From Candidatus Velamenicoccus archaeovorus (lineage in GTDB: Bacteria > Omnitrophota > Gorgyraeia > Velamenicoccales > Velamenicoccaceae), in contig NZ_CP019384.1 in NCBI RefSeq assembly GCF_004102945.1, positions 1,650,001 through 1,682,000 of the forward strand: DNA of 32,000 nt, given 5' to 3'. The position numbers were made by a program, and so were the translations under genes. Position 1 is the first letter of the stretch. Every line of letters begins with the position of its first letter. The notes below the pieces were generated by a model that did not search any database, was not told the DNA's origin, and was given only the letters and a program-made list of their open reading frames with translations. Shown here one piece after another: positions 1 to 22,484 of the stretch.

Positions 1-834
1 GATAAAAAGAAACCCTGTATCCAGGACCAGACAACCGTCGCGCGACCTGGCGATAGGCATCCCATAGCTGCCCACCTCTTGACCGCAGGATGCGGCTGCC
101 GCCTCCAGAGCCTGTGCGGCCTGGGCCTGTTTGGCGACCGCCGGAGTCAACCCCAAAAGGGCCGCTGCCGCATCAAACAGGCGGCCTGCGCTCGACGAAA
201 GCGGCGTCTGAACCCCCCGGGCGATCATCTGATCGATAAGACGGAGTGTTTTGGCAGGGATCTTTCCTGAAAACGGCGTGCGGCCGGCACCCGCTGTCCT
301 GAGGATCCCGTATGCGATGCGCCATGGCTCCCGGATCGCCGCTTCATTGCCGGCCAAGGGCTGATAATCCAGGTGGCCCGCGCGCACAAAACCTTTGGCG
401 CTGCAGTAAAAAAATTCGCCGCCCCACATCCGGCCGTCGGCGCCGAAGCCCGTTCCGTCAAAAGCCGCGCCGATGAAAGGCCGCCGCGTTTGCATATCGA
501 AAACGGCATTGGCCACATGGGCCCAATGATGATAGACGGCTTGGAGGCGGGCAGAGGGAAAGAGCTCTTTCTGAAGAAGAGGCGCCAGCCTCCGGCAAGC
601 AAAATGCGGATGAGGATCAAAAGCGATGACGGCCGGCCGCACGCAGTATCTTCGAACGGCAAAGGCGACCGCCTGCCGATAAAATTCCTCGATATCTTCC
701 GCCTCCAGCCGAGGAGACAACTGGAACAGGGTTTTTCCGTCAACCCAACAAAGACCCGGCCGCGTATCCGTGCCCAGAGCCAGAATACGCCGGCCCCCAT
801 CAAATTTCAGCGGTGTCTGCGTTACGGAAAACAT
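1..834 (-). CDS. HypF-like Kae1-type (C-terminal carbamoyltransferase) domain protein; the 3' end runs off the window
   Basis: Absent from the ORF track because there is no stop codon in the window. My translation from ATG 834..832 gives MFSVTQTPLKFDGGRRILALGTD...AVYHHWAHVANAV...GAAFDGTGFGADGRMWGGEFF...PLAGNEAAIREPWRIA...SSSAGRLFDAAAALLGL. These match the HHxAH, DGTGxGxDGxxWGGE, AIREPWR and GRLFDA blocks of the HypF C-terminal domain. An alternative GTG start at 864 makes a GTGA overlap with the upstream stop. No acylphosphatase, Zn-finger or YrdC part precedes it. Confidence 0.75.
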   Translation of the reverse strand, partial: MFSVTQTPLKFDGGRRILALGTDTRPGLCWVDGKTLFQLSPRLEAEDIEEFYRQAVAFAVRRYCVRPAVIAFDPHPHFACRRLAPLLQKELFPSARLQAVYHHWAHVANAVFDMQTRRPFIGAAFDGTGFGADGRMWGGEFFYCSAKGFVRAGHLDYQPLAGNEAAIREPWRIAYGILRTAGAGRTPFSGKIPAKTLRLIDQMIARGVQTPLSSSAGRLFDAAAALLGLTPAVAKQAQAAQALEAAAASCGQEVGSYGMPIARSRDGCLVLDTGFLFI

Positions 835-860
835 CTCGAAGGGCGCCCGAGTCCGGCGGC

Positions 861-2348
861 TCACTCCTTGCCGACGTAAGACCTTGTGCCGTGGGATTCC
901 TTCTCGAAATGGCCCACGTTATTCATGAAATCCCTCACACACAAGCCGACGAGGGGATCGTAATTGCGGTTATGCATGGCCCTCTGGATACGGCCCGGTT
1001 TTGAATAAAATTCGCGGAACGCCCAGGAACCAAGGTCCGCTATCTCCGGGACCGTCAGGTGGTTCGTCGGGATGATCGGCTGATGAAAATCCCACTGTCT
1101 GATCTTTTTGTTGAGGTCTTCCAGACGCAAGAGGCCTTTTTTGGTTGCCTCCTCCCAGATCGGCGATCCGGGGATGGGCGTCAAAAACTGAAGGGCGATG
1201 ATGTCCGGATCGACCTCATCGACAGCCTCAAAGCGCGCCTTGATCTTCTCTTCGTTATCGTCCTCGAAGCCCATCATCCAGGTCAACACCGTCGCGATCC
1301 CGGCTTCCCTGAGTTTCGCCACTGTTTCCTTGACCTGCTCGACGGTAATGCCTTTCTTGATCTTGCGCAGCTCCTCATCATCGGCGACTTCCAGGCCCAC
1401 AAGGCACATAAAACAGCCGGCACGCCGCAGGTCCTTGAACAAATCGATATCGCGGATAAAATACGGCGCCCTGCCCAACGGCATCCATTTCATCTTGTTG
1501 TCGCGACGCAAACACTCCTCGATCGTCTCTTCCACGCGCGAACGATAAACATTATACGTATCGTCCATCATGACAATGACACGCGTGCCGTGCTTTTCGT
1601 ACAAAATCTCCATTTCGTCGACGACCTTCTTGCCGGAACGATAGCGGTAATTTTTCAGGTCCTGATGCCCCCGGGGGTCATACTGGCCCCATTCATAGCA
1701 AAAGGTGCAGGCCGCCGGGCACCCGCGGGAATTCCACGTCTCCGAATAATTCTTCCAATAGGTATGGCTGACGTAGACATCCATGGGAAACAGATCGTAG
1801 GCCGGCATAGGCAAAGTGTTCAGGTCCTGGATGAGGGGCCGGTATGCATTGAGGGTGATCTTGCCGTTATCGCGCCAGCAGATACCCTTGACGCCGGCGA
1901 TGTCCGGCTTGGTCTTGACCAGCTCTTTCAATAACTCGCTCAACGTCAGCTCCGCTTCCCCTGCGATACAGAAGTCCAGGTGCGGATTTTCCTTCATGGT
2001 AAATTCCGACGCTGAAGCATAAAAGATGCCGCCGACGATGATCTTGACATGAGGATAGCGCTCCTTGATCTTGCGCGCCGCCTCATTGTAAATGAAAACA
2101 ACGGCCAATCCTCCGGTCGTATGCAGAATATCGCCGAGATAAACGATGTCGGCGCCGGACTCTCCCACCTTGTCGAGCATCTGCGCTTCCGTCAGGCCGT
2201 AGGCGCGGCAATCCAGGACGGCGAGCTCCAAGTCCGGGTTATGCTGACGCAAGAAACCCGCCAGCTGCGCATGGCCGATATTGATGGCTTTATGCGTTCC
2301 CCATGTCGCCCAGGCGCCCAACGGCGGTTGAACAAATAAAATCTTCAT
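861..2348 (-). CDS. B12-binding domain radical SAM enzyme (paralog 1)
   Basis: 495-aa ORF. The N-terminal Rossmann-like cobalamin-binding region reads MKILFVQPPLG...IVGG. The radical SAM cluster motif is SRGCPAACTFCYEW (CxxxCxxC). AAGGAGG lies 7 nt upstream of the ATG at 2348. It is roughly half identical to the ORF at 13862-15334 by eye. Confidence 0.9.
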   Translation of the reverse strand: MKILFVQPPLGAWATWGTHKAINIGHAQLAGFLRQHNPDLELAVLDCRAYGLTEAQMLDKVGESGADIVYLGDILHTTGGLAVVFIYNEAARKIKERYPHVKIIVGGIFYASASEFTMKENPHLDFCIAGEAELTLSELLKELVKTKPDIAGVKGICWRDNGKITLNAYRPLIQDLNTLPMPAYDLFPMDVYVSHTYWKNYSETWNSRGCPAACTFCYEWGQYDPRGHQDLKNYRYRSGKKVVDEMEILYEKHGTRVIVMMDDTYNVYRSRVEETIEECLRRDNKMKWMPLGRAPYFIRDIDLFKDLRRAGCFMCLVGLEVADDEELRKIKKGITVEQVKETVAKLREAGIATVLTWMMGFEDDNEEKIKARFEAVDEVDPDIIALQFLTPIPGSPIWEEATKKGLLRLEDLNKKIRQWDFHQPIIPTNHLTVPEIADLGSWAFREFYSKPGRIQRAMHNRNYDPLVGLCVRDFMNNVGHFEKESHGTRSYVGKE

Positions 2349-2510: not shown

Positions 2511-3431
2511 CTATAACTTTACCTCCTGAAAAATCCTCTCCAAGGTCCCGCCCAAGATATCCCGGCGGTCCTTTTCCGCTATATCCAAGTCATGCAGGAT
2601 CCCCATGGACCCCTTGACATCTTTTTTTGCCGGATAATCACTGCCCCAGACGATATGGCCGGGGCCGAAAAGCTCCAGGGACGACAGGTAGTTTGCCGCC
2701 GTTCTGTCGCCGCTGGTATCCACATAGATGCGCTTGAGATACGCCGAGGGGAGGTCCCCGAGGTCGCGGACGAAATTGACACCCCTCAACATCGTGTATG
2801 TCGCGTCATAGCGGTGCGCAATAAAAGGCGTGACGCCGCCGAAATAGGCAAAGATGAAATTCAGCTCCGGGAACCGCTCGAAGACCTGGGACATGAGCAG
2901 CTTGCCCACGCACATGGTCGTTTCAAAAACATATTCAATCACCGGCGTCAGGAGGGGATCTTCCACTTTCTCGGATCCGATAGGCTTGACGATCTGGGGA
3001 TGGACAAAAACCGGCACCCCCTCGTCCTGCGCCAGGGCATAAAGATCAAAATACCGCGGGTCGTCCAAAAATAAGCCGTTGGTGCTGGTCGCAAGAGAAA
3101 TGGCCCGAAAACCCTGTTCGGCCGTCGCCTTCTTGTACGTATCGACCATGCCTTTTTTCTCATCGACCGGAAGGACGACCGCGCCGATGAATCTCTCCGG
3201 ATATTTACGCAGGACTCCGGCCACGCTCCCGTTAAAGACCTCCGCCACCTCTCTGAAGCCTCCCAGGCGCACAAAAGCATCGGAGGTCGGATAGCTCAAA
3301 ACCGCGCGGTCAACCCCCGCCTCGTCCATGGCCTTGAGATGGGCTTCGATATCTCCCCAGGCCTTGGAGTAAAAATGGGCGGAGCTTATGATCTCCTGCG
3401 GCAACCAGTGACTATGGGCGTCGATAATCAT
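2511..3431 (-). CDS. Amidohydrolase_2 / ACMSD-type metal-dependent hydrolase or decarboxylase
   Basis: 306-aa ORF. The N-terminal MIIDAHSHWLP (HxH metal motif) and the C-terminal GSDYP are typical of the amidohydrolase-2 family, which includes non-oxidative aromatic acid decarboxylases. Confidence 0.8.
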   Translation of the reverse strand: MIIDAHSHWLPQEIISSAHFYSKAWGDIEAHLKAMDEAGVDRAVLSYPTSDAFVRLGGFREVAEVFNGSVAGVLRKYPERFIGAVVLPVDEKKGMVDTYKKATAEQGFRAISLATSTNGLFLDDPRYFDLYALAQDEGVPVFVHPQIVKPIGSEKVEDPLLTPVIEYVFETTMCVGKLLMSQVFERFPELNFIFAYFGGVTPFIAHRYDATYTMLRGVNFVRDLGDLPSAYLKRIYVDTSGDRTAANYLSSLELFGPGHIVWGSDYPAKKDVKGSMGILHDLDIAEKDRRDILGGTLERIFQEVKL

Positions 3432-3492
3432 ATGGATTCATAAAGTTCGTTGAGTTCATAGAATTTTTTAACTCAAGAGGCTCAAAAAACTA

Positions 3493-4176
3493 TCAATTTA
3501 ACGGCTCCAGGCTGACGTCATCCACATCGATCGTGCCTTTGGCGATGGCGATCGGCTCGAACTGAAAACTCATGACGGGAAAATCCAGGGCGCCGTTAAC
3601 ATCCGCCGTCGGCGGCTGCCAATCGCCCCTAGGGAAAAACTGGTCGAAGGGACAAACGACCTGCTTCCAGCCTTTCGTGTCATCCGTCACCATAAAACGG
3701 AACATCTCGCCGCCGGCGTCCTTGATATCAAAAGCCATCCGCATCCCCGACGCCGTGCCGTAGAGATAAAAACTGAGCGCGCCATAGCTCGACCAGGGGA
3801 TATCCTGCGGTTTTTTCGTCCACCGGTCGGCCCCTTTCACATCCAGGTTGAATCCCCGCGCCACCCAGATATATCCGCCGCTGACGGCGTCGTAATCGAT
3901 CTTCAAAGACTGCTCTCCTGATTTTTTATTTTCCTTATCGGCGCTGACGGCCACGCTTGAGCCGTTCCCGGCGCCGGCGTCAATGGTCCCCTTGGGATCC
4001 GAGATGATGGGCCCCTCAAAATCATCCAGGACAAAAGCCTTCGGGGCATCCTGGGCCTGGACGCAACCGGCCACAAGCAGGACCGACAAAAAAAACAACT
4101 GTCCCGCTTTCGCCGGAACATGGCCGAAAAACCTTGCGCGGCGCTTACAAACATTTCCACATGGATGCATCAACAT
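3493..4176 (-). CDS. Predicted lipoprotein with a CBM/CIA30-like beta-sandwich domain
   Basis: 227-aa ORF. The signal peptide has a basic n-region and a lipobox LLVAGC. The mature part has a DDFEG...SLKIDY...W..Y.ALSFYLYG...W pattern resembling carbohydrate-binding or CIA30-like modules. The family assignment is weak. Confidence 0.6.
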   Translation of the reverse strand: MLMHPCGNVCKRRARFFGHVPAKAGQLFFLSVLLVAGCVQAQDAPKAFVLDDFEGPIISDPKGTIDAGAGNGSSVAVSADKENKKSGEQSLKIDYDAVSGGYIWVARGFNLDVKGADRWTKKPQDIPWSSYGALSFYLYGTASGMRMAFDIKDAGGEMFRFMVTDDTKGWKQVVCPFDQFFPRGDWQPPTADVNGALDFPVMSFQFEPIAIAKGTIDVDDVSLEPLN

Positions 4177-4188
4177 AACGACTCCTTG

Positions 4189-4962
4189 TTATTTAGTCGG
4201 ATGGTTCTGTTTCAACGGAATAACGGGTTTTGTCCACGGCGTCTGCTGGTTGATGACCGAGATCTCCAGAGGACAGACGTTTGCCGGGACCGTCAGGGCG
4301 AACTTGACCGCATTCTCGATCGCCTCCGTCGACATAAGACGGCTGCGGTCTTCGGAGACGTCCTTGAGCTTACCCGTCAGTTCCGTATCCGTCACGCCGG
4401 GCAACAACGACGTCACCTTGATGCCGTAATCGCGCATCTCCCAGAAAAGCCCTTTGCCGAACTTGCGCAGGGCCCACTTCAACGAGGTATAGACGATGAA
4501 ATTCCGCGGCGGCGGATCGACCATGGTCGATCCGGAAACCATGTTGATGACCGCCCCGCCCTTGTTGGCGACAAAATGATTGATGATCAGACGCGTCAGC
4601 ATGACGTAGCCGAAAAAGTTAGTATACATAAGCTTCTCGATGTCTTCGAGGGGTTGCTCGTGGAACGGATACTGGCTGGAAACGCCGGCATTGTTGATGA
4701 GCGCATCGATCTTTTTGTATTCCTTGATCGAAACATTGACCAGGTTCTCCAGGTCCGCCTGCTTGCTGACGTCGCAAGGCACGGCCAAGACCTTGACGCC
4801 GTAAGCCTTGGCGATCTGGGCGGCTGTCGCCTCCAGCGTCTCCTTGCCTCTGGCCGCAATCACAAGATTCACGCCTTCTTTCGCCAGGCTCTCGGCAATG
4901 GCCCGGCCGATGCCGCGGCTGGCGCCCGTAATGATGACCGCTTTCCCTTTTAATGACGTCAT
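4189..4962 (-). CDS. Short-chain dehydrogenase/reductase (candidate polyketide ketoreductase)
   Basis: 257-aa ORF with TGASRGIG cofactor motif, NNAG, and catalytic YTSLK (YxxxK). Its start overlaps the MFS stop as ATGA at 4959-4962. Confidence 0.9.
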   Translation of the reverse strand: MTSLKGKAVIITGASRGIGRAIAESLAKEGVNLVIAARGKETLEATAAQIAKAYGVKVLAVPCDVSKQADLENLVNVSIKEYKKIDALINNAGVSSQYPFHEQPLEDIEKLMYTNFFGYVMLTRLIINHFVANKGGAVINMVSGSTMVDPPPRNFIVYTSLKWALRKFGKGLFWEMRDYGIKVTSLLPGVTDTELTGKLKDVSEDRSRLMSTEAIENAVKFALTVPANVCPLEISVINQQTPWTKPVIPLKQNHPTK

Positions 4963-6086
4963 GCCAACTCCTTTTTTAAAATTTTATCTGTTTGAAGATA
5001 CATCAAAAACAAGGCAACCGCAAAAACGGCAAAACCCGGCGCAAACCCCCTCTGCATGACCCAGCCGCCGGCGATCACGCCCAGTCCGCCGGAAACGAAC
5101 CGCACGGAACTGTTGAGACTCGAGATCTCCTTGATGTAGTGCTTGTTCAAATCCGTCAAATGCGTCGAGAGCCCGGCATGGTTCATGGTCCAGCCGAATC
5201 CCCAGATAAGCAGGATGACGCACAAGGCGGCCACGGCCTTAAAAAAGATCAGGATCGCCAAAGACAGGACCATCAGGAAAACGCCCATCTTGAGCGTCGG
5301 AATACGCCCCTGGCGGTCGGACAAGAACCCGCCCATGGCTTCGCCGAAAATGCCGGCGATGCTTGCCATGGTCAGGACCATCGATACCCAAAACTGACGC
5401 AGACCCAATCCTTGCGCAAAATACACCCCCAGCCACTGCCGCACGCCGTGATACAGCATGCTGATCAAAAAAATATAGGCAAAGGCCGCCAGGATCCCTC
5501 GGTCCCGGAAGGCCTCGGCATAGCGCATGCCGACCTCATCCCGCCTCTCGGCGGAACCGAAAGGCGCGCCGGCAAGCGTCGCCGGAAAATGACGCGCCGT
5601 CAAAAAAGCCGTGATCCCGCCCAGCACCGCCGGGATAAAAAACATGGCCCTCCAGGGGATGATACCGCTCAAAAAAAGCCCGCTTAAATCCGCGATAAAC
5701 GTCGCACTGAAAAACAGCCCGACAGCTTTACCCCTGCCGTCTTGCGGGGCATGGTCCGCGATATAGATCAAAGACAGCGGTGTGATGGCTGCCGCAAACA
5801 TCCCGACGAGTAACCTGTAGACAAAAAGCTGTGAGATATCGGCGGCGATCCCGGACAAAAAACTGAAAATCGAAAAACACAAGAGGCTTGCGACCGCGAT
5901 ATGCCGGTTCTCAAACACACGCGTCAAAGGGCCGTAGAGAAGCGCCATGATGCCGTAAGGCAGCATGTAGGCCCAGTTGATGCGGCCCGCCACAAAATCA
6001 GAGATGCCGAAATCCGAGGCGATGGCCGGCACGATGGCCGATACCGACGCCACATTAAACGCGATACAAAACCCTTGCAGGCACAA
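4959..6086 (-). CDS. MFS transporter
   Basis: 375-aa ORF, highly hydrophobic with about 12 predicted TM segments and typical MFS loop motifs. The start is uncertain. The only candidates are TTG at 6086 or an unusual codon further upstream, and an in-frame TAG lies about 60 nt upstream. Confidence 0.8.
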   Translation of the reverse strand: MCLQGFCIAFNVASVSAIVPAIASDFGISDFVAGRINWAYMLPYGIMALLYGPLTRVFENRHIAVASLLCFSIFSFLSGIAADISQLFVYRLLVGMFAAAITPLSLIYIADHAPQDGRGKAVGLFFSATFIADLSGLFLSGIIPWRAMFFIPAVLGGITAFLTARHFPATLAGAPFGSAERRDEVGMRYAEAFRDRGILAAFAYIFLISMLYHGVRQWLGVYFAQGLGLRQFWVSMVLTMASIAGIFGEAMGGFLSDRQGRIPTLKMGVFLMVLSLAILIFFKAVAALCVILLIWGFGWTMNHAGLSTHLTDLNKHYIKEISSLNSSVRFVSGGLGVIAGGWVMQRGFAPGFAVFAVALFLMYLQTDKILKKELA

Positions 6087-6131
6087 TATCGAAAAATCAG
6101 AACGCTTGATAGCAACCTCTCTAAATTTGCC

Positions 6132-6288: not shown

Positions 6289-6307
6289 CATCATTTGGAA
6301 TTCGGAA

Positions 6308-6751
6308 TTAAACTTGTGCAGCTTCTTTTTCTATCACTCTTTTGAAAATTTCCAGGTTCTCCCTGGAGTGCTTATTGATGAACCCTTCCACCTGCTCGTC
6401 ATTGAACTTGGCCTTCTTGTCCATCGTGAAATGCTGGATCCAGGTCAAGATGACGCCGTCGGGAGTCGGCGTATAGAGCCAGATGATCTTCATGTACTCA
6501 AAGGGAAATTTCGGGTCTAGCCTCTCGGCGTACGTAAAATAATCCTTTTTGAACAGGAGCCTGAAGGACTGCCAAGAACGGCCCTCGTCGTCCGTCAGCT
6601 GGAAGACGATCTTGCTGGCCTCTTTTTTGACGACCCTGGCCTCTTTATACTCGCCGCCGAACAACTCCGTCCATCTTGGGATATCGTTGGAGATATCGAA
6701 TATCTTCTCATAAGGCGCTTTGATCGTGATCGAATTGCAGGTATATCCCAT
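6308..6751 (-). CDS. SRPBCC-fold polyketide cyclase/aromatase-like protein
   Basis: 147-aa ORF. Its size and pattern (ITIKAPYEKIFDISNDIPRWTELF...) fit the TcmN-type Polyketide_cyc2/SRPBCC family. GAGGGG lies 7 nt upstream of the ATG. Confidence 0.7.
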   Translation of the reverse strand: MGYTCNSITIKAPYEKIFDISNDIPRWTELFGGEYKEARVVKKEASKIVFQLTDDEGRSWQSFRLLFKKDYFTYAERLDPKFPFEYMKIIWLYTPTPDGVILTWIQHFTMDKKAKFNDEQVEGFINKHSRENLEIFKRVIEKEAAQV

Positions 6752-6850: not shown

Positions 6851-7657
6851 TCACTCTTCTATGATCGCAACGGCCCGCGTCCAGCCGGCGCCCGCATCCT
6901 TCACCTTGACGGGAAAACAGCACACCTTGAAACCGAAGGGCTTTGGGATGTCTCCCAGGTGGCCCAGACGTTCCATGTGGACATATTCGCGCTTGCGCCC
7001 CAAAAAGTGGCAGGGCCAGATCTTCTGTTTGTCCTTGGTGTCCAGGAATTCCTTAAACATCTCGAAGCATGGCCGGTCCAAGCCGATCGTGTCGATGCCG
7101 AGCATCCTGACACCCTGGTCCAGGATGTATTCCAGGGCGTCGGGAAGCATGCCGACATATTTGTTGACGTAGTCCGGCGTCCCCACGAGTTTGTCCCCTC
7201 CCGTATAAATAAGAACAATGTCATTTTTTTGGAGCCTATAGGAGATACGCTTGAGGGCGGCGACGACATCAGCTTTCGCGATGTTCTGCGGGTATCTCAG
7301 GTGCGTAAAATCCAAGACGACCCCGGCACCATAGCACCATTCCAAAGGAAGGTCGGCGATCTTCCTGGCGGGTTTGCCTTGGCATTTCGAACCGTAATGG
7401 AACGGCGCATCCACATGCGTGCCCATATGAACGGAGGCGTGGACGATCTCCAAAGAGAGCATCTCGCCGTCGGGAACCTCCTCCGGCATCGCCGCCCGCT
7501 CACCTTTCCGGAAACGCTCTTTGCCGCCGGGCTGCCTGGCCATCACGATCTCATTGAAATGCTCGACACCCTCGGCATGCGCGATCCTGTCGATCCTTGC
7601 CGCATGGGTCTCGGCCAGCGTATCGTCAATAGGAAGGCTCAAATCAATGATCTTCAT
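6851..7657 (-). CDS. Putative cyclase family protein (PF04199, kynurenine formamidase/polyketide cyclase-like)
   Basis: 268-aa ORF with the family signature HMGTHVDAPFH (HxGTHxDxPxH). Its start overlaps the upstream gene's stop as ATGA at 7654-7657. Confidence 0.85.
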   Translation of the reverse strand: MKIIDLSLPIDDTLAETHAARIDRIAHAEGVEHFNEIVMARQPGGKERFRKGERAAMPEEVPDGEMLSLEIVHASVHMGTHVDAPFHYGSKCQGKPARKIADLPLEWCYGAGVVLDFTHLRYPQNIAKADVVAALKRISYRLQKNDIVLIYTGGDKLVGTPDYVNKYVGMLPDALEYILDQGVRMLGIDTIGLDRPCFEMFKEFLDTKDKQKIWPCHFLGRKREYVHMERLGHLGDIPKPFGFKVCCFPVKVKDAGAGWTRAVAIIEE

Positions 7658-8046
7658 TTCGTCTCAACCAATTTCTGCAACAGGTTCAGTTTTTTCCGTT
7701 CCCAGACGGAAAAGCCAAGAACAAAAATCCCCATCACCATCGTCAGCGTCTGGGCAAAACGGATCGTGAGGACCTTGAGGATCGCCCTTGGCGCGATGAT
7801 CAACGTCTTCGTCACAGCCAACAGTTTCTTCTCGCGGAGAGAAAGCGGCCCGGCTGTATCCAGCTTACTCAAGATCACCCGCTCCTCTGCGCCGGGTCTC
7901 AAAAGATAAGCCTGCAGACGCTGGCTGGAAAACGCCAGAAAAATCCAGGAAAAAACAACACAGGCGATAAGCGCCCAGCCGCAGAAAAACAACCTGCGGT
8001 TCGCCCTGCGCCATCTCAACAACTGTTCCTGAAGGACCGTATCCAT
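7654..8046 (-). CDS. Small integral membrane protein, unknown function
   Basis: The ORF has two clear hydrophobic segments (FFCGWALIACVVFSWIFLAF and MVMGIFVLGFSVW). I prefer the ATG at 8046, which has AGGAGG 7 nt upstream, over the track's TTG at 8085. Confidence 0.6.
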   Translation of the reverse strand: MDTVLQEQLLRWRRANRRLFFCGWALIACVVFSWIFLAFSSQRLQAYLLRPGAEERVILSKLDTAGPLSLREKKLLAVTKTLIIAPRAILKVLTIRFAQTLTMVMGIFVLGFSVWERKKLNLLQKLVETK

Positions 8047-8081: not shown

Positions 8082-8315
8082 TCAACCTTTCTTTTTATTA
8101 ATGACGCCGGCGATCTGGTCAAGCGTCTGGTATTTCGTCACTTCCTTCTCTCCGAGCTGCACGCCGAATTCTTTCTGAAGGGCAATGCAGACCTCGACCA
8201 TCTCCGTCGAATCGACGCCCAGGCTCTGCTCAAGGGTCTGGCCTTCTTTAAGCTCTTCCGGCCTGACCTTAAGCAACTTCACGACGACGTCCTTCACCTT
8301 TCCTTTCGTGTCCAT
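8082..8315 (-). CDS. Acyl carrier protein
   Basis: 77-aa ORF with the phosphopantetheine attachment motif LGVDSTEMVEV and an acidic helix-II region. Confidence 0.9.
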   Translation of the reverse strand: MDTKGKVKDVVVKLLKVRPEELKEGQTLEQSLGVDSTEMVEVCIALQKEFGVQLGEKEVTKYQTLDQIAGVINKKKG

Positions 8316-15514: not shown

Positions 15515-16993
15515 CTACACATTAAACCAAGAGGCGACCAAGGTCTTGCCGCCCGGCGTCAGATCGACATTGACATGCTTGACCTGCGTTAATTCGCACA
15601 GGCCTTCCTTGCCGAGTTCCCGGCCGAAACCGCTCTGCTTGTAGCCGCCGAAAGGCGCTTCGTTATAAAATCCGCCGAAGGTATTGACCCAGACCGTGCC
15701 TGCGCGCAGCCTTCTGGCCACGGTCGCCACCTTGTTGACGTCTTTTGTCCAGATCATGGCCGCCAGGCCATAGATCGTATCGTTGGCAATGCGCACGGCA
15801 TCCTCCGCATCCCTGACTTTGATGACCGACAGGACGGGACCGAAGATCTCCTCTCTGGCGATGCGCATGCTGTTGTCCACATCGGCAAAAATGGTCGGCT
15901 CGACGTAGAAACCCCGGCGCAAATCCTTCGGCGCGCCGCCGCCGACGACCAACCTGGCCTCTTTTTTTCCGACGGCGATATACTCCAAGACGGTTTTTCT
16001 CTGTTTATCGCTGACCAAAGGGCCTATGTCCGTTGCCGGATCCTCGGGCGAACCGACCTTGAGCTTTTTGGTCTTTTCAACCAAAAGCTCGACACACTTC
16101 TCATAAATGGATTCTTCGACCAGAAGCCGCGATCCCGCCACGCACATCTGCCCCTGATTCATGAAGATGGCGCACAAAGAGCCGTTGACGGCCGTCTCCA
16201 GATCGCAGTCCGCAAAAAGGATATTCGGCGACTTGCCGCCGCATTCCAGAGAAAGCCTCTTTAAATTCGAAGAGGCCGCCTTCATCACGTCCCGGCCGAC
16301 TTCCGTCGATCCGGTAAAAGAAAGCATATCGACATCCATGGATGCAGCCAGGCCGTGCCCCAACAGGCGGCCTTCGCCTGTCACGATGTTGACGACGCCG
16401 GCAGGCAATTCCACTTCCTGAAGGATCTTGGCCAGCTCCAGGCAGCTCAACGAGGCCTCCTGCGAAGGCTTAAGCACCAAGGTGTTACCTAAAATAATAC
16501 CTGAGGCAATCTTCCAGGCCGCCATCAGAAACGGATAATTCCACGGGATGACAGCGCCCACGACGCCTACGGGCTCCCGCAGCGTATAGCTCATGGCCGG
16601 CGCCGGGACCGTCATCGTCTCGCCCTTGACCTCGGCGGCAGCCCCAGCAAAATATTCGTAGGCATTGGCGGCGGTCGGGATATCGATGAACGTGGTCTGC
16701 TTGGTCGTCTTGCCGGTGTCCTGCGTCTCGATCTTCGCAAGCTCATAGGCGCGTTCACGGATCAGATGCGCCACGCGCACCAGGATCTGCGCCCGTTCAG
16801 ACAAAGACATCCGCGGCCACTCGCCTTCGTCATAAGCCCGGCGGGCCGCACGGACCGCCTCTTCCAGGTCCGCCGTCCCCGCTTTCGGGAACGATGCAAT
16901 CTTCTCTTCTGTCGCCGGGTTGGCGCCCTCCAGCCGCGCGCCGTCCCTGGCATCGCACATCTTGCCGTCGATATACATCTGATATTGCATCAT
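15515..16993 (-). CDS. NAD(P)+-dependent aldehyde dehydrogenase
   Basis: Catalytic blocks LECGGKSP and FMNQGQMCVAGSRLLV, plus EEIFGPV. I prefer the ATGATG start at 16993 (GAGGA 5 nt upstream) over the track's start at 17020. Confidence 0.9.
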   Translation of the reverse strand: MMQYQMYIDGKMCDARDGARLEGANPATEEKIASFPKAGTADLEEAVRAARRAYDEGEWPRMSLSERAQILVRVAHLIRERAYELAKIETQDTGKTTKQTTFIDIPTAANAYEYFAGAAAEVKGETMTVPAPAMSYTLREPVGVVGAVIPWNYPFLMAAWKIASGIILGNTLVLKPSQEASLSCLELAKILQEVELPAGVVNIVTGEGRLLGHGLAASMDVDMLSFTGSTEVGRDVMKAASSNLKRLSLECGGKSPNILFADCDLETAVNGSLCAIFMNQGQMCVAGSRLLVEESIYEKCVELLVEKTKKLKVGSPEDPATDIGPLVSDKQRKTVLEYIAVGKKEARLVVGGGAPKDLRRGFYVEPTIFADVDNSMRIAREEIFGPVLSVIKVRDAEDAVRIANDTIYGLAAMIWTKDVNKVATVARRLRAGTVWVNTFGGFYNEAPFGGYKQSGFGRELGKEGLCELTQVKHVNVDLTPGGKTLVASWFNV

Positions 16994-17039
16994 CTTATCC
17001 TCGCAGCATCCATGCCCCACACGCAGGTGCGGGGTAAAA

Positions 17040-18035
17040 CTATGCTACCGGCGCGCTCGTCCACAGATCGAAGAGCCGGTTGAACGGCACATACCAGCGC
17101 GAAATCTTGGCGAAATCCCCTTTAAGTTTCAGCTTCTTCTGCGTCGTCGCGGCAAAGGGATCGAGCTGGCGCTTGAAGATCGCGCGCCAGTAATCCGATT
17201 TGCCGGAGATCACGAATTCGGCGTCGCCGACCTTGTCCGTGAAATCCTTGATCCCGCCTCCGGAAAAATGGAAGCAGTATGCCGTCTGGGTCTCGTCCAG
17301 CACGACCGCCAGTTTCGTCTCCAGGTTCGTCTGCAGGGCGAGCTGGCGGAACTGGGCGTCCTGATTCACGAGACGCACAATCTCGACTATCTGCTCTTTG
17401 GAGAACAATTCAAAAGTCCCGCCCGCAGGAGAAACAGCCGCATTCCCGCCCGAAGCCGGCGCCGCCGGACGATCCACTCTTACATAAAGATCTTTGATGC
17501 AGGCGATCTTGACCGCTTCCTCCAGGGTCTGCGCCAAAAAGAACGCATCGTTCAACGTCTCTCCGATGGCCACGACCCCATGGTGCTTCAAGACAACGAT
17601 ATTGCTGTTTTTGAGCGCCTCGATCACCGGCATGATATCGGTGATCGTCGGCGTCTTCTGGTCGACGACCGGCACGTCCCCTAAAACAAGACGTGTCTCG
17701 AACGTATCAAAACTGATCCTGTCATGGACGGCAAAATACCCGTTGCAAAACGTCGGATGTACGTGAACGACAGCCTTGGCATCCAGATGCTGATAAACGC
17801 TCGTATGGAACAATTTTTCAGAAGACGGGACGAACCCTTTGACCAAGGGGTCGCCGTCCATGCGTATGGTGCAGACGTCTTCGGCCTTGAGCGCACCCAA
17901 GCAGGTGCCGCGGCCCGTGATCAGGATGGTCTCGTCGTCAACGCGCAGGCTTAGATTACCAGAGGCGCCGCCCGAGAGGTCCTTCTCCCAGATCCACTTG
18001 CCGATACGGATAATCTCGTCTATCTTTTTCTGCAT
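17040..18035 (-). CDS. Class II aldolase/adducin-family enzyme fused to a C-terminal SCP2 sterol-carrier domain
   Basis: The N-terminal half has GGASGNLS, VVHVHP (HxH metal ligands) and KHHGVVAIG. The C-terminal roughly 110 aa has an SCP2-like pattern (FVISGKSDYWRAIFKRQLDPFAATTQKKLKLKGDF). The ATG at 18035 lies 4 nt after the upstream stop. Confidence 0.8.
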   Translation of the reverse strand: MQKKIDEIIRIGKWIWEKDLSGGASGNLSLRVDDETILITGRGTCLGALKAEDVCTIRMDGDPLVKGFVPSSEKLFHTSVYQHLDAKAVVHVHPTFCNGYFAVHDRISFDTFETRLVLGDVPVVDQKTPTITDIMPVIEALKNSNIVVLKHHGVVAIGETLNDAFFLAQTLEEAVKIACIKDLYVRVDRPAAPASGGNAAVSPAGGTFELFSKEQIVEIVRLVNQDAQFRQLALQTNLETKLAVVLDETQTAYCFHFSGGGIKDFTDKVGDAEFVISGKSDYWRAIFKRQLDPFAATTQKKLKLKGDFAKISRWYVPFNRLFDLWTSAPVA

Positions 18036-18039
18036 ATCC

Positions 18040-18528
18040 TTATGCTCCCGGATTCTGTCCTTGCGTGCGGCCGACAAGGCTCATCGGCACTTCTTCCAGC
18101 AAAGGGACATATGTCTTGATCTTCGACGACGTCACCTTCATCCCCCCAATCTTTAACAGGTCGGCGCCCTTCGCCTCGCGCGGCATGGCGCCCTCATGCA
18201 AAACGACCGGGATCCGATGGGTGTGGGCGCAGAGGGCCGCGATCAGGGAACCCGTGCGGCAAAGCGCGACATCGTTTTTCCGGCCTTGCGCAAAGATGTG
18301 GACGGCGCTCACGAGTTTCCTTTCCATACAAAACGCCATCATATTATCGCAGATGACGACCGGCTTGACGCCGCGCCCTATGAGTTCTTTGGCGACGTCT
18401 TTCATGCCTTCCAAGGCCGGCCTCAATTCCGCCACAAAGACCTTTTTCGCCTTGAGTTGCGCGTAAAAATCCTCCTGCGGCACGCCGAAAATAAGAGGTA
18501 TTTGTTCTTTAACGAGCATGAATCGCAA
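18040..18528 (-). CDS. Truncated IF-2B/MtnA-family paralog (C-terminal Rossmann half only)
   Basis: 162-aa ORF. VFVAELRPALEG...VVICDNMMAFCM...CRTGSLIAALCAHTHRIPVVL parallels the ETRP..QG...LI.DNA...ANKIGTY..A..A....IPFYV region of the neighbouring MtnA-like protein. It lacks the GxDR Asp and the N-terminal domain. Confidence 0.6.
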   Translation of the reverse strand: MRFMLVKEQIPLIFGVPQEDFYAQLKAKKVFVAELRPALEGMKDVAKELIGRGVKPVVICDNMMAFCMERKLVSAVHIFAQGRKNDVALCRTGSLIAALCAHTHRIPVVLHEGAMPREAKGADLLKIGGMKVTSSKIKTYVPLLEEVPMSLVGRTQGQNPGA

Positions 18529-19477
18529 TATGTTTTGTCACCCATTGGTGCGGCACGACGTCGAAACCCGGATAAAAAGCGGCTGTGCCTTCAGGCGCAA
18601 GATTCCTGCCGGCAAAACACAGGATCTCTTCGTCCCGACGCACCTCGATCGGGATCTCGCGGCCTGAACTTAATTTGTCCGACGACTGGACAAGCACGTA
18701 AAAAGGGATGCCGAAATGCCGGGCCAGAAGAGCGATCTGATATGTCCCTATCTTGTTGGCGAAGTCGCCGTTGGCCGCGGAACGGTCGGAGCCGACAAGG
18801 ACGCAATCCACGTCACCATCGCTCATGACCTTGGCCGCCGCATTGTCCGGGATAAGCGTCACATCAAAACCCTCCCGTTTCAGTTCCCAGGCGGTCAGCC
18901 GCGAACCCTGAAAATAAGGCCGCGTCTCCGTGGCCAGAAAACGGACCTTCTTTTTTGCCTTTCGGCAGAACTCCGCGACTAGGGGCAGCTCGCCGGAGAC
19001 GTTGCAGTGCGTCAATACCGTGGCGCCGTCCTTGATCAATGCGGCAGCTTCCTGGGCCCTTTGATACCTCTTCTGCCTGATCCCCTGCTCCAAGAAACCG
19101 TTCATGGCCGAAATAAAATCCTGACGGAACATGGGACTTCCGGAGACCTTGCGCGCCACCCCCAGCACCATGCCCGTCACTTCCTCGAAGGGAAACGTGG
19201 GACGGCTCCTGTTGAAGGCCGCGGCGACGCGTTCAAGCAAACGCATCTGCGCACCGGCCGAAAGCCCGTCGGCCTTCTGCATCTCCAGCATGAACGTATA
19301 GCAGACGGTCAAAAACTGCCCGAAGGCGCGCGTCTTCATCGTCACGACCGCGTCGATCGCCTGATGATAATGACGGACCTTCAGGTAAACGATCCGCTGC
19401 GGTATCTTTGTCTCGTCTAAGATATAAAGCGTGCGGCCCTTCAGATGCACGGGCCAAAAGAGAACAGATTCTTTCAT
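18509..19477 (-). CDS. MtnA-type (IF-2B family) sugar-1-phosphate isomerase
   Basis: 322-aa ORF with LTHCN (catalytic Cys), ATETRPYFQGSRLTAWEL, VGSDRSAANGDFANKIGTY and IPFYV. No SD sequence precedes the ATG. Confidence 0.85.
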   Translation of the reverse strand: MKESVLFWPVHLKGRTLYILDETKIPQRIVYLKVRHYHQAIDAVVTMKTRAFGQFLTVCYTFMLEMQKADGLSAGAQMRLLERVAAAFNRSRPTFPFEEVTGMVLGVARKVSGSPMFRQDFISAMNGFLEQGIRQKRYQRAQEAAALIKDGATVLTHCNVSGELPLVAEFCRKAKKKVRFLATETRPYFQGSRLTAWELKREGFDVTLIPDNAAAKVMSDGDVDCVLVGSDRSAANGDFANKIGTYQIALLARHFGIPFYVLVQSSDKLSSGREIPIEVRRDEEILCFAGRNLAPEGTAAFYPGFDVVPHQWVTKHIAIHAR

Positions 19478-19686
19478 TAATTTTGCCTATACTAGGGTCC
19501 TTTTCCTCGCAAAATTAACCCCTGCCCGCCTTTGGGCGGGCGAGTCTACGCAGGAAATTTACGCCGGATGGCCGTCCTGGCCGGCTACGCCAGGCCGACG
19601 GCCTAGCCTTGGCGGAAATTTCCAAGTGATTAGACGCAAGGGTAACCTTAATATCCTTAATTTTGCCTCTACCGAGGTATTATTCC
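19478..19686 (-). repeat. Intergenic cassette copy 2, with a core at each end, before the MtnA-like gene
   Basis: Cores lie at 19476-19498 (TATAGGCAAAATTA directly followed by the ATG) and 19654-19678. Stem 19553-19567 pairs with 19607-19623 and encloses GGCCGTC/GACGGCC (19570-19576 with 19597-19603). There is an extra hairpin CCCGCC-tttg-GGCGGG. Confidence 0.7.
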
Positions 19687-20439
19687 TTATGACCCTTGCG
19701 CCAGCTTCTTGACCGCATCCAGGCACACCTTGACCACCCTGGCCTCGGCCTCGTAATAATCCGGGTTGATGAAACCGAGCTCGCCGGTGATCAGATTATC
19801 GCTGACGGCCGAGATCGAGGCGGCCTTGACATTGTTCAATTGCGCGATCGTCAGAAGCGCGCTCGACACCATGTCGACGGCCACGGCCCCCTCTTTTTTG
19901 ACCTTCTCGATCAATTCCCGGGTCTCGCGCAACAGCGCATCCGTCGTCCAGATCAGTCCTTTGCGGATCGAGACCTCGTTTTCTTTGGCCGTTGCTTCCA
20001 GGGCCGCCGTCACAGACACATCCGTCACTGTTTTATAATCCTTGTCCACGTAATAGGGCGTCACACCGTCGCCGCGCACGACACCTGTGGCCAGGACGAC
20101 ATCGCCGACCTTGATGGTCTCATCCAGGGCGCCGCAGGAACCGGCCCGGATGATGCACTCGACCTTCCCGGCGCACAGGATCTCGGCGATGATCGCGGAA
20201 TCCGGCGAAAACCGCCCGCCGTTGCCGACGGCGATCTTGATGCCCTCATAAAAGCCCGTATACATCGTATATTCAAAAAAGGAAAAGCTCTTGACCGGTT
20301 TTTCCAGATGCTCCAGGATCGCATCTCGGCGCTCGGCCGTGCCCGGAATAATGGCATACTTGCCGAAATCTCCCGGCTTGACTTGGACCATTCCCAGAAG
20401 ATCCCGACCTGTCAAATGGATGTCTTTCTTCATCTGCAT
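19687..20439 (-). CDS. PNP/UDP-family nucleoside phosphorylase
   Basis: 250-aa ORF with IIPGTAERRDAI, RAGSCGAL and VGDVV, laid out like hexameric PNP/Udp/MTAP-type phosphorylases. AAGGAG lies 7 nt upstream of the ATG. Confidence 0.8.
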   Translation of the reverse strand: MQMKKDIHLTGRDLLGMVQVKPGDFGKYAIIPGTAERRDAILEHLEKPVKSFSFFEYTMYTGFYEGIKIAVGNGGRFSPDSAIIAEILCAGKVECIIRAGSCGALDETIKVGDVVLATGVVRGDGVTPYYVDKDYKTVTDVSVTAALEATAKENEVSIRKGLIWTTDALLRETRELIEKVKKEGAVAVDMVSSALLTIAQLNNVKAASISAVSDNLITGELGFINPDYYEAEARVVKVCLDAVKKLAQGS

Positions 20440-20906: not shown

Positions 20907-22433
20907 TTAACATTTTTCCCCCACATTCACGTCATTCTGTCTCAACGCCACCTTGTCGATCTTGCCGGTCCTCGTCTTAGGAAGAGTATCGACGAAAACA
21001 ACGGTGTGGGGGATCTTAAAATGCGCCAGGTGCTGGCGGCAGAATTGCTTGACGTCCTGATCCGTGAGCGCTGTGCCTGTCTTCAGGACGATAAACGCCT
21101 TCAATGCTTCTCCGCGCAGCGCGTCGGAGACACCGATAACCCCGACTTCCGCCACGGCCGGGTGCTTGTGGACCGCCTCTTCGATTTCCGCCGGAAAGAC
21201 AATCTGGCCGGAAACCTTGACCATGTCTTTCTTGCGGCCGGCGATATAATACATGCCCTCTTTGTCCCGGCGGCCCAGGTCACCCGTATGGAACCAGCCG
21301 TCCCGCAAGACTTCTGCGGTCAGGGCGGGGTCCTTGTAATAACCGTCCATGACCACCCAGCTCTTCAGGACGATCTCCCCGATCTCGCTTTCGGGCACGT
21401 CCTGGTCGTCATCGTCGACCAGGCGGACGCTGATCCACGGCGCCGGCCTGCCGATAGACTCGATCTTCTCGGACCCCATGGGCGTCACGATATTCGGGGC
21501 GTTTGTCTCGGTCATCCCCCAGCCGTTAAGCAGCTTGGCATTCGGGCAATAGGTCTTGAAGCGGCGGATGGCGTCGGGTGAATTCGGGGCGCCGAAGACG
21601 TTGACCCACCGGATGCTGGAAAGGTCGTATTTCTCGAATTCCTTGAGGTGCAGGAGGGCGTAATACATCGACGGCACCATGTGAAAACAGGTCACCTTGT
21701 ATTTTTCTATATTTTTGAGATACTCGACGGGAATGAAGCGTTCCATGAGAATGAGGGTGATGCCGTAAAAAATGCAGTTCTGCAGGTAGACCAGTCCGCC
21801 GCCGTGCGACAACGGCAAGGCCGATAATTTCACGTCGGACGGCGTCAAGTCCACGAAAAACTCCATCGCCTCCGGCGCCGCGTTCAAATGCCGGTAACTC
21901 AGGCAAACCCCTTTGGGGCGGCCGGTCGAACCCGAGGTGTACAGGATCAAGGCGGGATCGGATGCGCCGATGGACGCCGAGGGAGCTTTGGAAGACCCCT
22001 GGGCAACGAAGTCATCGAAAGAAAGATATCCTTCTTTGCGTTCACGCGCAAGAAGGATATCCTTGAGCTTCGGCACGTGCGCCTTGATATTCTCCAGAGA
22101 AACATCAGGCCTGCTCTTGGCGACGAGAAGGACGGAATCGGAATGGTTTAAGCAGGCTTCCAGCTCATCATTCTTCAGCATGAAATCGAACGGAACGACG
22201 GTGGCGCCGATAGAAAACAAAGCCAGGTAGGCGTAAATATATTCCGGCCAGTTCGGCAGATACAAGGCGACCTTGTCGCCCTTCTTGACCCCCGAGGCCG
22301 TCAGATTGTTGGCGAGCCTGAAGACCCTGTCTTTGAGCTCACCGAACGTAACAGGCTTGTCTTCAAAGATAATAGCGGCTTTTTTTGGAAAAGCAGCCGC
22401 CTGTTTTATCACCAAGTCCCGGATTATCTGCAT
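20907..22433 (-). CDS. AMP-dependent acyl-CoA synthetase/ligase
   Basis: AMP-binding motif YTSGSTGRPKGV, plus WGMTE, GWFHTGD and the C-terminal PKTRTGKI. The start is ambiguous. I prefer the ATG at 22433 because the GTG at 22460 would place a strong hairpin inside the coding sequence. Confidence 0.88.
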   Translation of the reverse strand: MQIIRDLVIKQAAAFPKKAAIIFEDKPVTFGELKDRVFRLANNLTASGVKKGDKVALYLPNWPEYIYAYLALFSIGATVVPFDFMLKNDELEACLNHSDSVLLVAKSRPDVSLENIKAHVPKLKDILLARERKEGYLSFDDFVAQGSSKAPSASIGASDPALILYTSGSTGRPKGVCLSYRHLNAAPEAMEFFVDLTPSDVKLSALPLSHGGGLVYLQNCIFYGITLILMERFIPVEYLKNIEKYKVTCFHMVPSMYYALLHLKEFEKYDLSSIRWVNVFGAPNSPDAIRRFKTYCPNAKLLNGWGMTETNAPNIVTPMGSEKIESIGRPAPWISVRLVDDDDQDVPESEIGEIVLKSWVVMDGYYKDPALTAEVLRDGWFHTGDLGRRDKEGMYYIAGRKKDMVKVSGQIVFPAEIEEAVHKHPAVAEVGVIGVSDALRGEALKAFIVLKTGTALTDQDVKQFCRQHLAHFKIPHTVVFVDTLPKTRTGKIDKVALRQNDVNVGEKC

Positions 22434-22453
22434 AGCCACATACTTTCCCTGGG

Positions 22454-22484
22454 GCCCCACGGGTATAGTCCGTGGGGCTTTTTT
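22454..22484 (+). terminator. Intrinsic-terminator-shaped hairpin, oriented on the plus strand
   Basis: GCCCCACGG (22454-22462), a 7-nt loop, CCGTGGGGC (22470-22478), then TTTTTT (22479-22484). On the gene-sense (minus) strand it is an A6-preceded 5'-UTR hairpin with no U-tract. Confidence 0.4.

Follow-up and report, generated by a model that had tools for sequence, protein, structure and literature searches.

A putative aromatic type II polyketide synthase cluster with B12-binding radical SAM enzymes and a predicted 5'-deoxyadenosine salvage module in Omnitrophota

We analyzed a 32,000-nucleotide stretch of Candidatus Velamenicoccus archaeovorus, a member of the Candidatus Omnitrophota (contig NZ_CP019384.1, positions 1,650,001 to 1,682,000; hereafter the window, in whose own numbering all coordinates are given), and found in it a gene cluster that we read as an aromatic type II polyketide synthase (PKS) cluster, tailored by B12-binding radical S-adenosylmethionine (SAM) enzymes and equipped with its own salvage of 5'-deoxyadenosine. 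We estimate the probability of this reading at about 0.6. It is built on gene content, catalytic motifs, phylogenetic placement and co-conservation in relatives, all of which were observed directly. Genes were called from a listing of open reading frames and their translations, and the window proteins were then scanned against Pfam and NCBIfam (E values are given after the Pfam accessions). All cluster genes lie on the minus strand, and they most likely form a single-strand biosynthetic unit of about 22 kb that runs from a PadR-family regulator gene (23215) down to a second radical SAM gene (861). The genes named in an earlier sequence-only reading of this DNA were all present on that strand with significant family matches, one label (PCP_red) excepted, and the many overlapping start/stop junctions that it had reported amounted to five.

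The ketosynthase pair and the aromatic gene set

The core of the cluster is a pair of ketosynthase (KS) genes, KS-alpha (9777-11042) and KS-beta (8539-9777), the latter resembling a chain-length factor (CLF). Both proteins match PF00109 and PF02801, and the two genes overlap by one base at 9777. As the sequence-only reading had it, an intact KS-alpha is thus coupled to a partner without a catalytic triad. The KS-alpha triad consists of a Cys in STGCTAG and two His residues in FHMTD and NAHGSST, and the same residues were found in the aligned Omnitrophota orthologs. In the window KS-beta, an Arg stands in place of the Cys and an Asp in place of both His residues. This holds for its orthologs, in which all 78 distinct sequences had Arg at the Cys position and either Asp or Asn at the His positions. 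Three metagenomic CLFs (L097, L098 and L103) carried the canonical Gln. Since Arg was also seen at this position in three pairs from outside the Omnitrophota (L093, L094 and L108), we think of an Arg-type CLF lineage that reaches beyond this phylum and is not of the canonical KSQ type.

Compared with structures in the PDB, KS-alpha scored 415 bits with Photorhabdus AntD, 388 bits with the actinorhodin (Act) KS-alpha and 358 bits with the best FabF, whereas KS-beta scored higher with FabF (299 bits) than with the Act CLF (268 bits). The equivalog cut-off of the FabF model TIGR03150 (493.75 bits) was missed by both KS-alpha (455 bits) and KS-beta (372 bits), and family scans found no FabG/FabZ/FabI/FabD-type neighborhood around the pair. 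We then placed the pair in a neighbor-joining tree (100 bootstraps) together with Omnitrophota orthologs, metagenomic KS pairs, KS genes from a FabG-acyl carrier protein (ACP) context, and AntD, Act KS-alpha and Bacillus subtilis FabF as references. KS-alpha fell into a KS-alpha clade with Act KS-alpha and AntD (98% bootstrap) and, within it, into a subclade with AntD, Clostridium botulinum and Laceyella (90%). KS-beta clustered with CLFs from other type II pairs, and all KS-alpha and CLF sequences were split from the KS of FabG-ACP context at 100% bootstrap. A grouping with FabF/FabB, named beforehand as the outcome that would speak against a PKS, was thus not found in this tree, which holds few labeled references and none of the aryl-polyene type. 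Taken together, these comparisons of sequences support the assignment of the pair to type II PKS and not to FabF.

A search of 1.84 billion representative proteins showed that relatives of KS-alpha outside its own family reach 54% identity at most. The nearest outsiders carrying a name were a "minimal PKS ketosynthase (KS/KS alpha)" and proteins of C. botulinum and Laceyella/Thermoactinomyces. A blastn search of the KS pair against plasmids returned weak partial matches only (64-67%), mostly to Streptomyces KS genes. Four proteins of 784 to 869 residues (P0121, P0125, P0131 and P0133) matched KS-alpha in two stretches and look like either KS-alpha/KS-beta fusions or merged gene calls. A further metagenomic locus of high GC content (L124:7655-13997, Ga0315298_1002964) carries, among glycosyltransferase genes, two B12-binding radical SAM genes, an SRPBCC gene, a single KS gene and a DegT-type aminotransferase gene, in the order radical SAM, SRPBCC, KS, radical SAM, aminotransferase. 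Its KS has an intact triad, is 43% identical to the window KS-alpha, and was placed by the tree close to the CLFs, inside the clade of type II PKS.

The genes around the pair fit the aromatic type II PKS set that had been recognized from the letters alone, a call now supported by the KS tree and the PDB scores as well as by the ACP and both cyclase families. The ACP (8082-8315; PF00550, 3.3e-10) has the DS motif. The PF04199 "putative cyclase" of OxyN type (6851-7657; 1.9e-29) carries the motif HxGTHxDxPxH, as HMGTHVDAPFH. A single-domain, TcmN-like SRPBCC protein (6308-6751; PF10604, 1.3e-06; PF03364, 4e-06) is a candidate aromatase/cyclase, its Pfam match being weak yet above the gathering threshold (29.2 versus 27.4 bits). 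A protein of 171 residues (13024-13539) had no match in Pfam or NCBIfam and none to the SRPBCC family of the cluster in hhalign (probability 2%). Its AlphaFold2 model (mean predicted local distance difference test score [pLDDT], 84.9) has a helix-grip fold, and Foldseek matched this model to Bet v 1, PYR/PYL and TcmN ARO/CYC (2rer) with E values of about 1e-5. By its predicted structure, this protein is a second SRPBCC/Bet v 1-fold protein.

Two reductases and a putative decarboxylase complete the set. The first reductase is a classical short-chain dehydrogenase/reductase (SDR; 4189-4962; PF00106, 1.1e-51; KR domain PF08659) and a candidate ketoreductase. A role as C-9 ketoreductase was considered and dropped, its closest structures being generic SDRs (clavulanate and glucose dehydrogenases) and not ActKR. 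The second belongs to the ketopantoate reductase (KPR, ApbA/PanE) family (11888-12883; PF02558 and PF08546; TIGR00745, 161.6 bits versus a cut-off of 141). The Amidohydro_2 protein (2511-3431; PF04909, 5.3e-27) is predicted to be a non-oxidative decarboxylase of ACMSD/LigW/gamma-resorcylate type, and its closest PDB entries are ACMSD, 5-carboxyvanillate decarboxylase and gamma-resorcylate decarboxylase.

Conservation across the Omnitrophota

To assess conservation, we turned to GTDB contigs at one genome per species. A KS-alpha relative was encoded in 316 species-level stretches, and the best 80 of them, in which KS-alpha identity ranged from 71 to 98%, were compared. Most of these 80 carried Omnitrophota or Omnitrophica in their titles; the rest were labeled "uncultured Planctomycetia/Planctomycetales" and, in one case, "Deltaproteobacteria". 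Likewise, the best 120 protein clusters for KS-alpha (72-96% identity) were all from Omnitrophota where they were named. Gene presence was scored by tblastn of all window proteins against the loci, limited to the 30 loci whose 10-kb flanks were complete. KS-alpha, KS-beta, ACP, the PF04199 cyclase, the SRPBCC protein encoded at 6308-6751, the SDR, the KPR-family reductase, a 91-residue conserved protein and at least one B12-binding radical SAM enzyme were present in all 30. The nucleoside phosphorylase described below was found within 10 kb of the KS genes in 28 loci (93%), the Amidohydro_2 protein in 27 (90%), the transporter of the major facilitator superfamily (MFS) in 25 (83%) and the TIGR04076 protein in 20 (67%). 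Less constant were the acyl-CoA ligase and the IF-2B fragment (17 loci each), the CBM_11-like lipoprotein (13 loci) and the second SRPBCC-fold protein (12 loci). Co-conservation in relatives, which the sequence-only reading had put forward as a check, was therefore borne out.

Three gene orders were distinguished. The window type has two radical SAM genes together with the TIGR04076 gene, and the seven loci with two radical SAM genes all belong to the clade of the window itself. The second type (L003) has one radical SAM gene and lacks TIGR04076. In the third (L005), the salvage genes follow the Amidohydro_2 gene instead of standing ahead of the PKS core. Overall, 17 loci have the salvage block upstream of the core, and 11 have it downstream.

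The GC content is even across the window (0.51-0.58), which, together with the syntenic flanks, argues for vertical inheritance. GC skew is negative nearly throughout, and this fits a single direction of transcription. When the same pairs of genomes were compared, KS-alpha was 72-74% identical and AccA 66-72%, so that KS-alpha is at least as conserved as this housekeeping protein. Type II PKS clusters are usually sporadic, actinobacterial and tailored mainly by O2-dependent enzymes. A cluster inherited across an uncultured, largely anaerobic phylum would thus represent an unusual distribution for a type II PKS.

Outside the Omnitrophota the gene set vanishes, at least among the matches listed. 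In our metagenome sample, the listed loci with a KS-alpha at least 73% identical to that of the window carried the whole set, whereas the listed loci with a KS-alpha at most 48% identical carried no radical SAM, KPR, 91-residue protein or salvage genes. One locus from outside the phylum (L094:6180-15546) encodes an O-methyltransferase, an SRPBCC protein, KS-alpha, an Arg-type CLF, an alpha/beta-hydrolase, a PF04199 cyclase and a multicopper oxidase. It has the look of an aerobic counterpart whose tailoring roles fall to ordinary methylation and to oxidation that depends on O2.

Radical SAM enzymes and the nucleoside module

The two B12-binding radical SAM enzymes, rSAM1 (13862-15334) and rSAM2 (861-2348), match PF04055 and PF02310, are about 47% identical to each other and resemble the class B enzymes BchE and HpnJ. 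We take rSAM1 to be the universal enzyme of the cluster and rSAM2 to be its paralog. These two were their best-scoring curated families, with 200 bits for rSAM1 and 198 for rSAM2 against the BchE model TIGR02026 (cut-off 481) and 169 and 157 bits, respectively, against the HpnJ model (cut-off 578). The lipid biosynthesis model TIGR04072 gave 79 and 100 bits (cut-off 360). Among the window proteins scanned, there was no match to an oxygenase, P450, ABM, malonyl-CoA:ACP transacylase (MCAT) or phosphopantetheinyl transferase (PPTase) family, as the sequence-only reading had noted. From this lack it had proposed that O2-dependent tailoring is replaced in this cluster. The part of the proposal that concerns the radical SAM enzymes gained support: a B12-binding radical SAM enzyme occurs in every full-flank locus, its gene lies between those of KS-beta and ACP in the L005-type order, and the presumed aerobic counterpart L094 shows a contrasting set of tailoring genes. 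Two other parts were not supported, namely, the PCP_red protein and the HypF Kae1 domain. The supposed PCP_red protein is the 91-residue protein mentioned above (13594-13869), whose gene overlaps that of rSAM1 by 8 nucleotides; it has sub-threshold PCP_red (18 bits versus a gathering threshold of 32.5) and DUF2621 matches only. The HypF-like protein (1-834; PF22521, 6.7e-41; PF17788), cut by the window edge, consists of Kae1-like subdomains only; the acylphosphatase, Zn-finger and YrdC domains are absent. As an exact look-up of rSAM2 found no record, the DNA beyond the window start was deduced from a 97%-identical locus (L009), in which a full-length Kae1-only homolog of about 390 residues is followed by a HypC-like gene of 77 codons starting MCLAVP (L009:19628-21130). 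The Kae1-only gene is confined to the close clade. A tailoring role is thus unlikely, and the HypF gene is probably a hydrogenase maturation neighbor outside the cluster. For HypF to be split or truncated is itself unusual.

The tandem TIGR04076 protein (11204-11836; 108 bits versus a cut-off of 33) has two repeats. Residues C33, H35, H50, C56 and C89 in the first and C136, C158 and C192 in the second are invariant, and H163 is nearly so. Each repeat thus has three invariant Cys, with a pair of invariant His in the first and a single, nearly invariant His in the second. Its AlphaFold2 model (pLDDT 88) found no match in a fold search of the PDB (best E value, 0.047; TM score, 0.27), and we found no functional literature on the family. 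A function as metal or redox helper is our guess from the conserved Cys and His residues.

Between rSAM1 and the ligase gene lie five genes (15515-20439) that the sequence-only reading did not mention, nor did it mention the PadR boundary. They encode a PNP_UDP_1 nucleoside phosphorylase of DeoD/uridine phosphorylase-like type (19687-20439; PF01048, 5.8e-35), an MtnA-like sugar-1-phosphate isomerase of the IF-2B family (18509-19477; PF01008, 1.2e-50), an IF-2B/MtnA-like fragment of 159 residues (18040-18519; PF01008, 7e-12), a class II aldolase of FucA type with a C-terminal SCP2-like domain (17040-18035; PF00596, 8.2e-37; PF02036, 6e-08) and an NAD(P)-dependent aldehyde dehydrogenase (ALDH; 15515-16993; PF00171, 2.6e-175). 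The closest PDB entries of the phosphorylase are uridine and purine nucleoside phosphorylases and one 5'-methylthioadenosine (MTA) phosphorylase. The isomerase scored 240 and 216 bits against NCBIfam models of methylthioribose-1-phosphate isomerase with cut-offs of 271 and 279, respectively. The aldolase reached 116 bits with PRK08660 (cut-off 203) and only 36 bits with DrdA (6btd), and the ALDH reached no NCBIfam equivalog cut-off. In all three gene orders, the aldolase keeps the motifs GN-S, SSE, HxH and HG, which we take to be the FucA-type metal and phosphate motifs, as well as the entire C-terminal domain. This SCP2-like lipid-binding domain makes up the C-terminal third of the protein (17040-17440, minus strand) and is highly conserved. 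The fragment gene covers only the middle of the IF-2B/MtnA fold (profile positions 129-212) and overlaps the end of the isomerase gene by 11 nucleotides.

In fluoroacetate biosynthesis, an aldehyde dehydrogenase turns fluoroacetaldehyde into fluoroacetate. The steps up to fluoroacetaldehyde, starting from 5'-fluorodeoxyadenosine, are performed in Streptomyces cattleya by the same series of enzymes as in the dihydroxyacetone phosphate (DHAP) shunt, an analogy drawn in PMC6079011. A phosphorylase (or kinase), an isomerase plus an aldolase of class II form the enzyme set for 5-deoxyribose disposal, or DHAP shunt (PMC6079011; PMC10986504). The clustering of phosphorylase, MtnA-like isomerase and class II aldolase genes by which such sets are recognized was found here (PF01048, PF01008 and PF00596). 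By their family matches, then, the genes at 15.5-20.4 kb are the enzyme series of a 5'-deoxyadenosine DHAP shunt.

On these grounds we propose the following pathway, in which every chemical step is predicted, as is the product class (anthrone, naphthol or alkylphenol type). The KS-alpha/KS-beta pair would assemble malonyl units into a poly-beta-keto chain carried by the ACP; because neither a transacylase nor a PPTase gene is present, malonyl units and phosphopantetheinylation are presumably provided in trans. The PF04199 cyclase and the two SRPBCC-fold proteins would fold and aromatize the chain, the SDR and the KPR-family reductase would reduce carbonyls, and the ACMSD/LigW-type enzyme would strip the ring carboxylate from a hydroxy-aromatic acid. 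Most likely, one or two class B radical SAM enzymes would C-methylate the aromatic core or oxidize it without O2, standing in for oxygenases and ordinary methyltransferases, with the TIGR04076 protein possibly serving as redox helper. The MFS pump would carry the product out. Radical SAM turnover leaves 5'-deoxyadenosine, which is an inhibitor of such enzymes. This would be the reason why the cluster carries its own phosphorylase, isomerase, aldolase and ALDH, and it would link the module to the radical SAM enzymes. The module would convert 5'-deoxyadenosine to DHAP and acetaldehyde and the latter to acetate, which the adjoining acyl-CoA ligase may re-activate.

Several points weigh against this proposal. 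The cluster was read from its genes, and its product and activities are predicted. KS-beta lacks the conserved Gln at the position that serves decarboxylative priming in canonical CLFs, so priming may depart from the textbook model, and the SDR shows no specific kinship to known C-9 ketoreductases. Both radical SAM enzymes stay far under every curated family cut-off, and their reaction type is not fixed by family. The isomerase and the aldolase also fall short of the curated equivalog cut-offs, as divergent paralogs; a substrate as small and hydrophilic as 5-deoxyribulose-1-phosphate does not account for the conserved SCP2 domain; and the DHAP shunt as described includes neither ALDH nor CoA ligase. 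Finally, synteny reaches as far as housekeeping neighbors such as AccA, so that adjacency is weaker evidence here than in more fluid genomes.

Some of these points would be met if the module made a primer for the KS/CLF pair, following the logic of fluoroacetate biosynthesis, instead of disposing of waste, an idea that we consider unlikely. The route, to which we give no better odds, would lead from a 5'-substituted 5'-deoxyadenosine to DHAP and X-CH2-CHO, then to X-CH2-COOH and to its CoA thioester as primer; its substrate might be 5'-deoxyadenosine, MTA or an adduct of the 5'-deoxyadenosyl radical with a lipophilic acceptor. The order of nucleoside phosphorylase, MtnA-like isomerase, class II aldolase and ALDH fits the fluoroacetaldehyde route, and ALDH and ligase would be superfluous for mere disposal. 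The ligase gene is adjacent in 17 of the 30 loci, but in the L005-type order it does not adjoin the module within the DNA covered. Conservation of the SCP2 domain in all gene orders suggests a hydrophobic substituent. However, neither a SAM halogenase nor an adenosylating radical SAM enzyme of HpnH/MqnE type was recognized, and to our knowledge B12-binding class B radical SAM enzymes are not known to form adenosyl adducts, which also weighs against a starter-unit role. With Arg and not Gln at the priming position of KS-beta, self-priming by malonyl decarboxylation may fail; yet there are loci that lack this module and have Arg-type CLFs too, and family scans found neither a KSIII (ketosynthase III) nor a priming acyltransferase in the cluster.

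Alternatively, the module could be an independent, general salvage of MTA and 5'-deoxyadenosine that stands beside the PKS genes through conserved gene order alone. This too is improbable in our view. Genes for AccA, a LysM-YkuD protein, a DUF212 protein and a ComM-like protein do keep their place by the cluster across diverged members, and DHAP-shunt trios are widespread as stand-alone operons (PMC6079011). Against this, the block was found at two positions, upstream of the core (17 loci) or after the Amidohydro_2 gene (11 loci), and it adjoined the cluster in both. Its gene junctions are tight, and a housekeeping version would not usually have an SCP2 fusion or an additional IF-2B fragment gene.

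A bolder extension of the starter-unit idea has, we think, only a slim chance of being right. It holds that the polyketide is needed throughout the phylum, for instance, as a quinone-like redox carrier or a lifestyle effector, that its skeleton starts from the 5'-deoxyadenosyl part of SAM, and that B12-radical chemistry replaces all oxygenase tailoring. If this were true, the pathway would be no occasional "secondary" one, and radical SAM turnover would be directly coupled to polyketide priming in metabolism, a coupling of which we have seen no description.

Least probable is a fatty-acid-type or ladderane-like lipid cluster, with a FabF-derived, KS/CLF-like heterodimer and radical SAM enzymes producing an uncommon membrane lipid, a scheme proposed for anammox Planctomycetota: KS-alpha reached 273 and 204 bits with chains B and C of PDB 9s5h, presumably the anammox FabF heterodimer, versus 415 with AntD, and it sits within the aromatic KS-alpha clade; the two cyclase families typical of aromatic PKS occur in 30 of 30 loci; family scans found no FabZ/FabA dehydratase or enoyl reductase in the cluster; and the radical SAM enzymes stay well under the TIGR04072 cut-off. 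What speaks for it is the pairing of a FabF2/FabFmut heterodimer with radical SAM enzymes in anammox cluster I (bioRxiv 10.64898/2026.05.19.726425), "ladderane" biosynthetic gene cluster calls by antiSMASH in metagenome-assembled genomes (MAGs) of Omnitrophota (PMC9902471), the FabF-leaning score of KS-beta, and the kinship of the ligase to long-chain fatty-acid-CoA ligases.

Cluster limits, neighboring genes and known systems

The acyl-CoA (AMP-forming) ligase gene (20907-22460; PF00501, 3.7e-86; PF13193) is preceded by the PadR-family gene (22655-23215; PF03551, 8.8e-16). The best NCBIfam match of the ligase was the long-chain-fatty-acid-CoA ligase PRK06187, with 447 bits versus a cut-off of 476. 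Since a PadR gene also immediately precedes the cluster in the L003-type and L005-type orders, it is probably the cluster regulator and the upstream boundary. Between PadR and the ligase, a sigma-70-like TTGACA-17-TAAAAT (22568-22540, minus strand; 11 of 12) is the best promoter candidate of the region, where overall counts of promoter and terminator sites were not above chance. An Rfam scan of the window gave no riboswitch or other RNA family at the gathering threshold. Within the cluster, the MFS transporter (4959-6086; PF07690, 4.5e-42) is a probable exporter, and a CBM_11-like lipoprotein with the lipobox LVAGC (3493-4176; PF03425, 1.3e-18) is encoded between the SDR and the decarboxylase. 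A small membrane protein of 130 residues (7654-8046) without significant family match was found in three loci only and is not kept beyond the closest relatives. A nearly identical stretch is present in a Candidatus Omnitrophota MAG (contig JBEEQD010001762.1, GCA_041890195.1), whose record ends inside the SDR gene.

An AccA gene lies just upstream of the cluster, and the order of ComM-like, DUF212, LysM-YkuD and AccA genes is kept in distant Omnitrophota (L005). Further out, the window encodes an AAA protein of ComM/ChlI type on the plus strand, opposite to the cluster (26812-28401), and, on the minus strand, a response regulator (28469-28846), a CHASE4-PAS histidine kinase (28897-31059) and a fragment of an alginate-export-like outer membrane protein (31115-31840).

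In a 2023 catalogue, Candidatus Omnitrophica was listed among 14 phyla with KS-CLF pairs (PMC10132072). Beyond this listing and the "ladderane" calls, the literature searched contained no characterized pathway with this gene set and described neither the cluster nor its accessory genes, product or conservation throughout the phylum; the sequence-only reading had likewise matched the locus to no described cluster. The KS-CLF pair as such is thus already catalogued, while that literature is silent on the cluster as a whole, on what it makes and on its role. The locus could serve as a test case for the tailoring of aromatic polyketides without oxygen and is relevant to the proposal that type II PKS had an ancient, "non-oxidative" origin. 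It supplies candidates for polyketide-modifying radical SAM enzymes of class B as well as an Arg-type chain-length factor, and it suggests a tie between the metabolism of radical SAM by-products and polyketide synthesis. Its product may also matter for the biology of Omnitrophota, which is poorly understood and may depend on hosts.

Among known systems, the ALDH step that follows the trio in the window likewise follows it in the S. cattleya fluoroacetate pathway. The DHAP shunts (DrdK/I/A and MtnP-MtnA-Ald2) share the phosphorylase/isomerase/aldolase trio with the window (PMC6079011), which differs from them in its SCP2-fused aldolase, its extra IF-2B fragment gene and its PKS/CoA ligase setting. 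Anammox ladderane cluster I (amxFabF2/amxFabFmut, amxACP, amxFabZ and radical SAM) follows the same logic of a KS, a KS without triad and radical SAM enzymes, likewise in an anaerobic bacterium of the Planctomycetes-Verrucomicrobia-Chlamydiae (PVC) group. However, the Cys is replaced there by Val or Thr and in the window by Arg, the KS lineages differ, a FabZ is present there and none in the window, and the window has aromatic cyclases and radical SAM enzymes that are not of the TIGR04072 type. With BchE and HpnJ, the window enzymes have in common a B12-binding domain, a CxxxCxxC core and O2-independent chemistry on hydrophobic polycyclic substrates (in their case predicted), although their gene context is unrelated to bacteriochlorophyll or hopanoids. 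A precedent for radical SAM tailoring of a type II aromatic polyketide is the C-methylation of an anthraquinone in coelulatin biosynthesis, by an enzyme reported to be HemN-like, of class C and without cobalamin, whereas the window enzymes are B12-binding and of class B (PMC9714029).

A further close parallel is found in the ancestral, non-actinobacterial type II PKS of Photorhabdus (ant, AQ-256), Dendrosporobacter (den, dendrubins) and clostridia (clr, clostrubin). Among PDB entries, AntD comes nearest to KS-alpha, the anaerobic host is as in den and clr, and a terminal decarboxylation has likewise been proposed for the dendrubins. We also take the Photorhabdus ant cluster to have, like the window locus, a CoA ligase gene and a reductase. 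Common to this ancestral type are a KS-alpha with the Cys-His-His triad and an inactive partner, an ACP, a TcmN-type SRPBCC protein and an OxyN-type PF04199 cyclase (PMC7693217), all of which recur here. Compared with the sampled relatives from outside the Omnitrophota, the radical SAM, KPR, TIGR04076 and 91-residue proteins and the DHAP-shunt-like module occur in Omnitrophota only. Unlike ant, den and clr, moreover, the window locus has a CLF with Arg instead of Gln and belongs to a cluster that is inherited phylum-wide and not sporadically.

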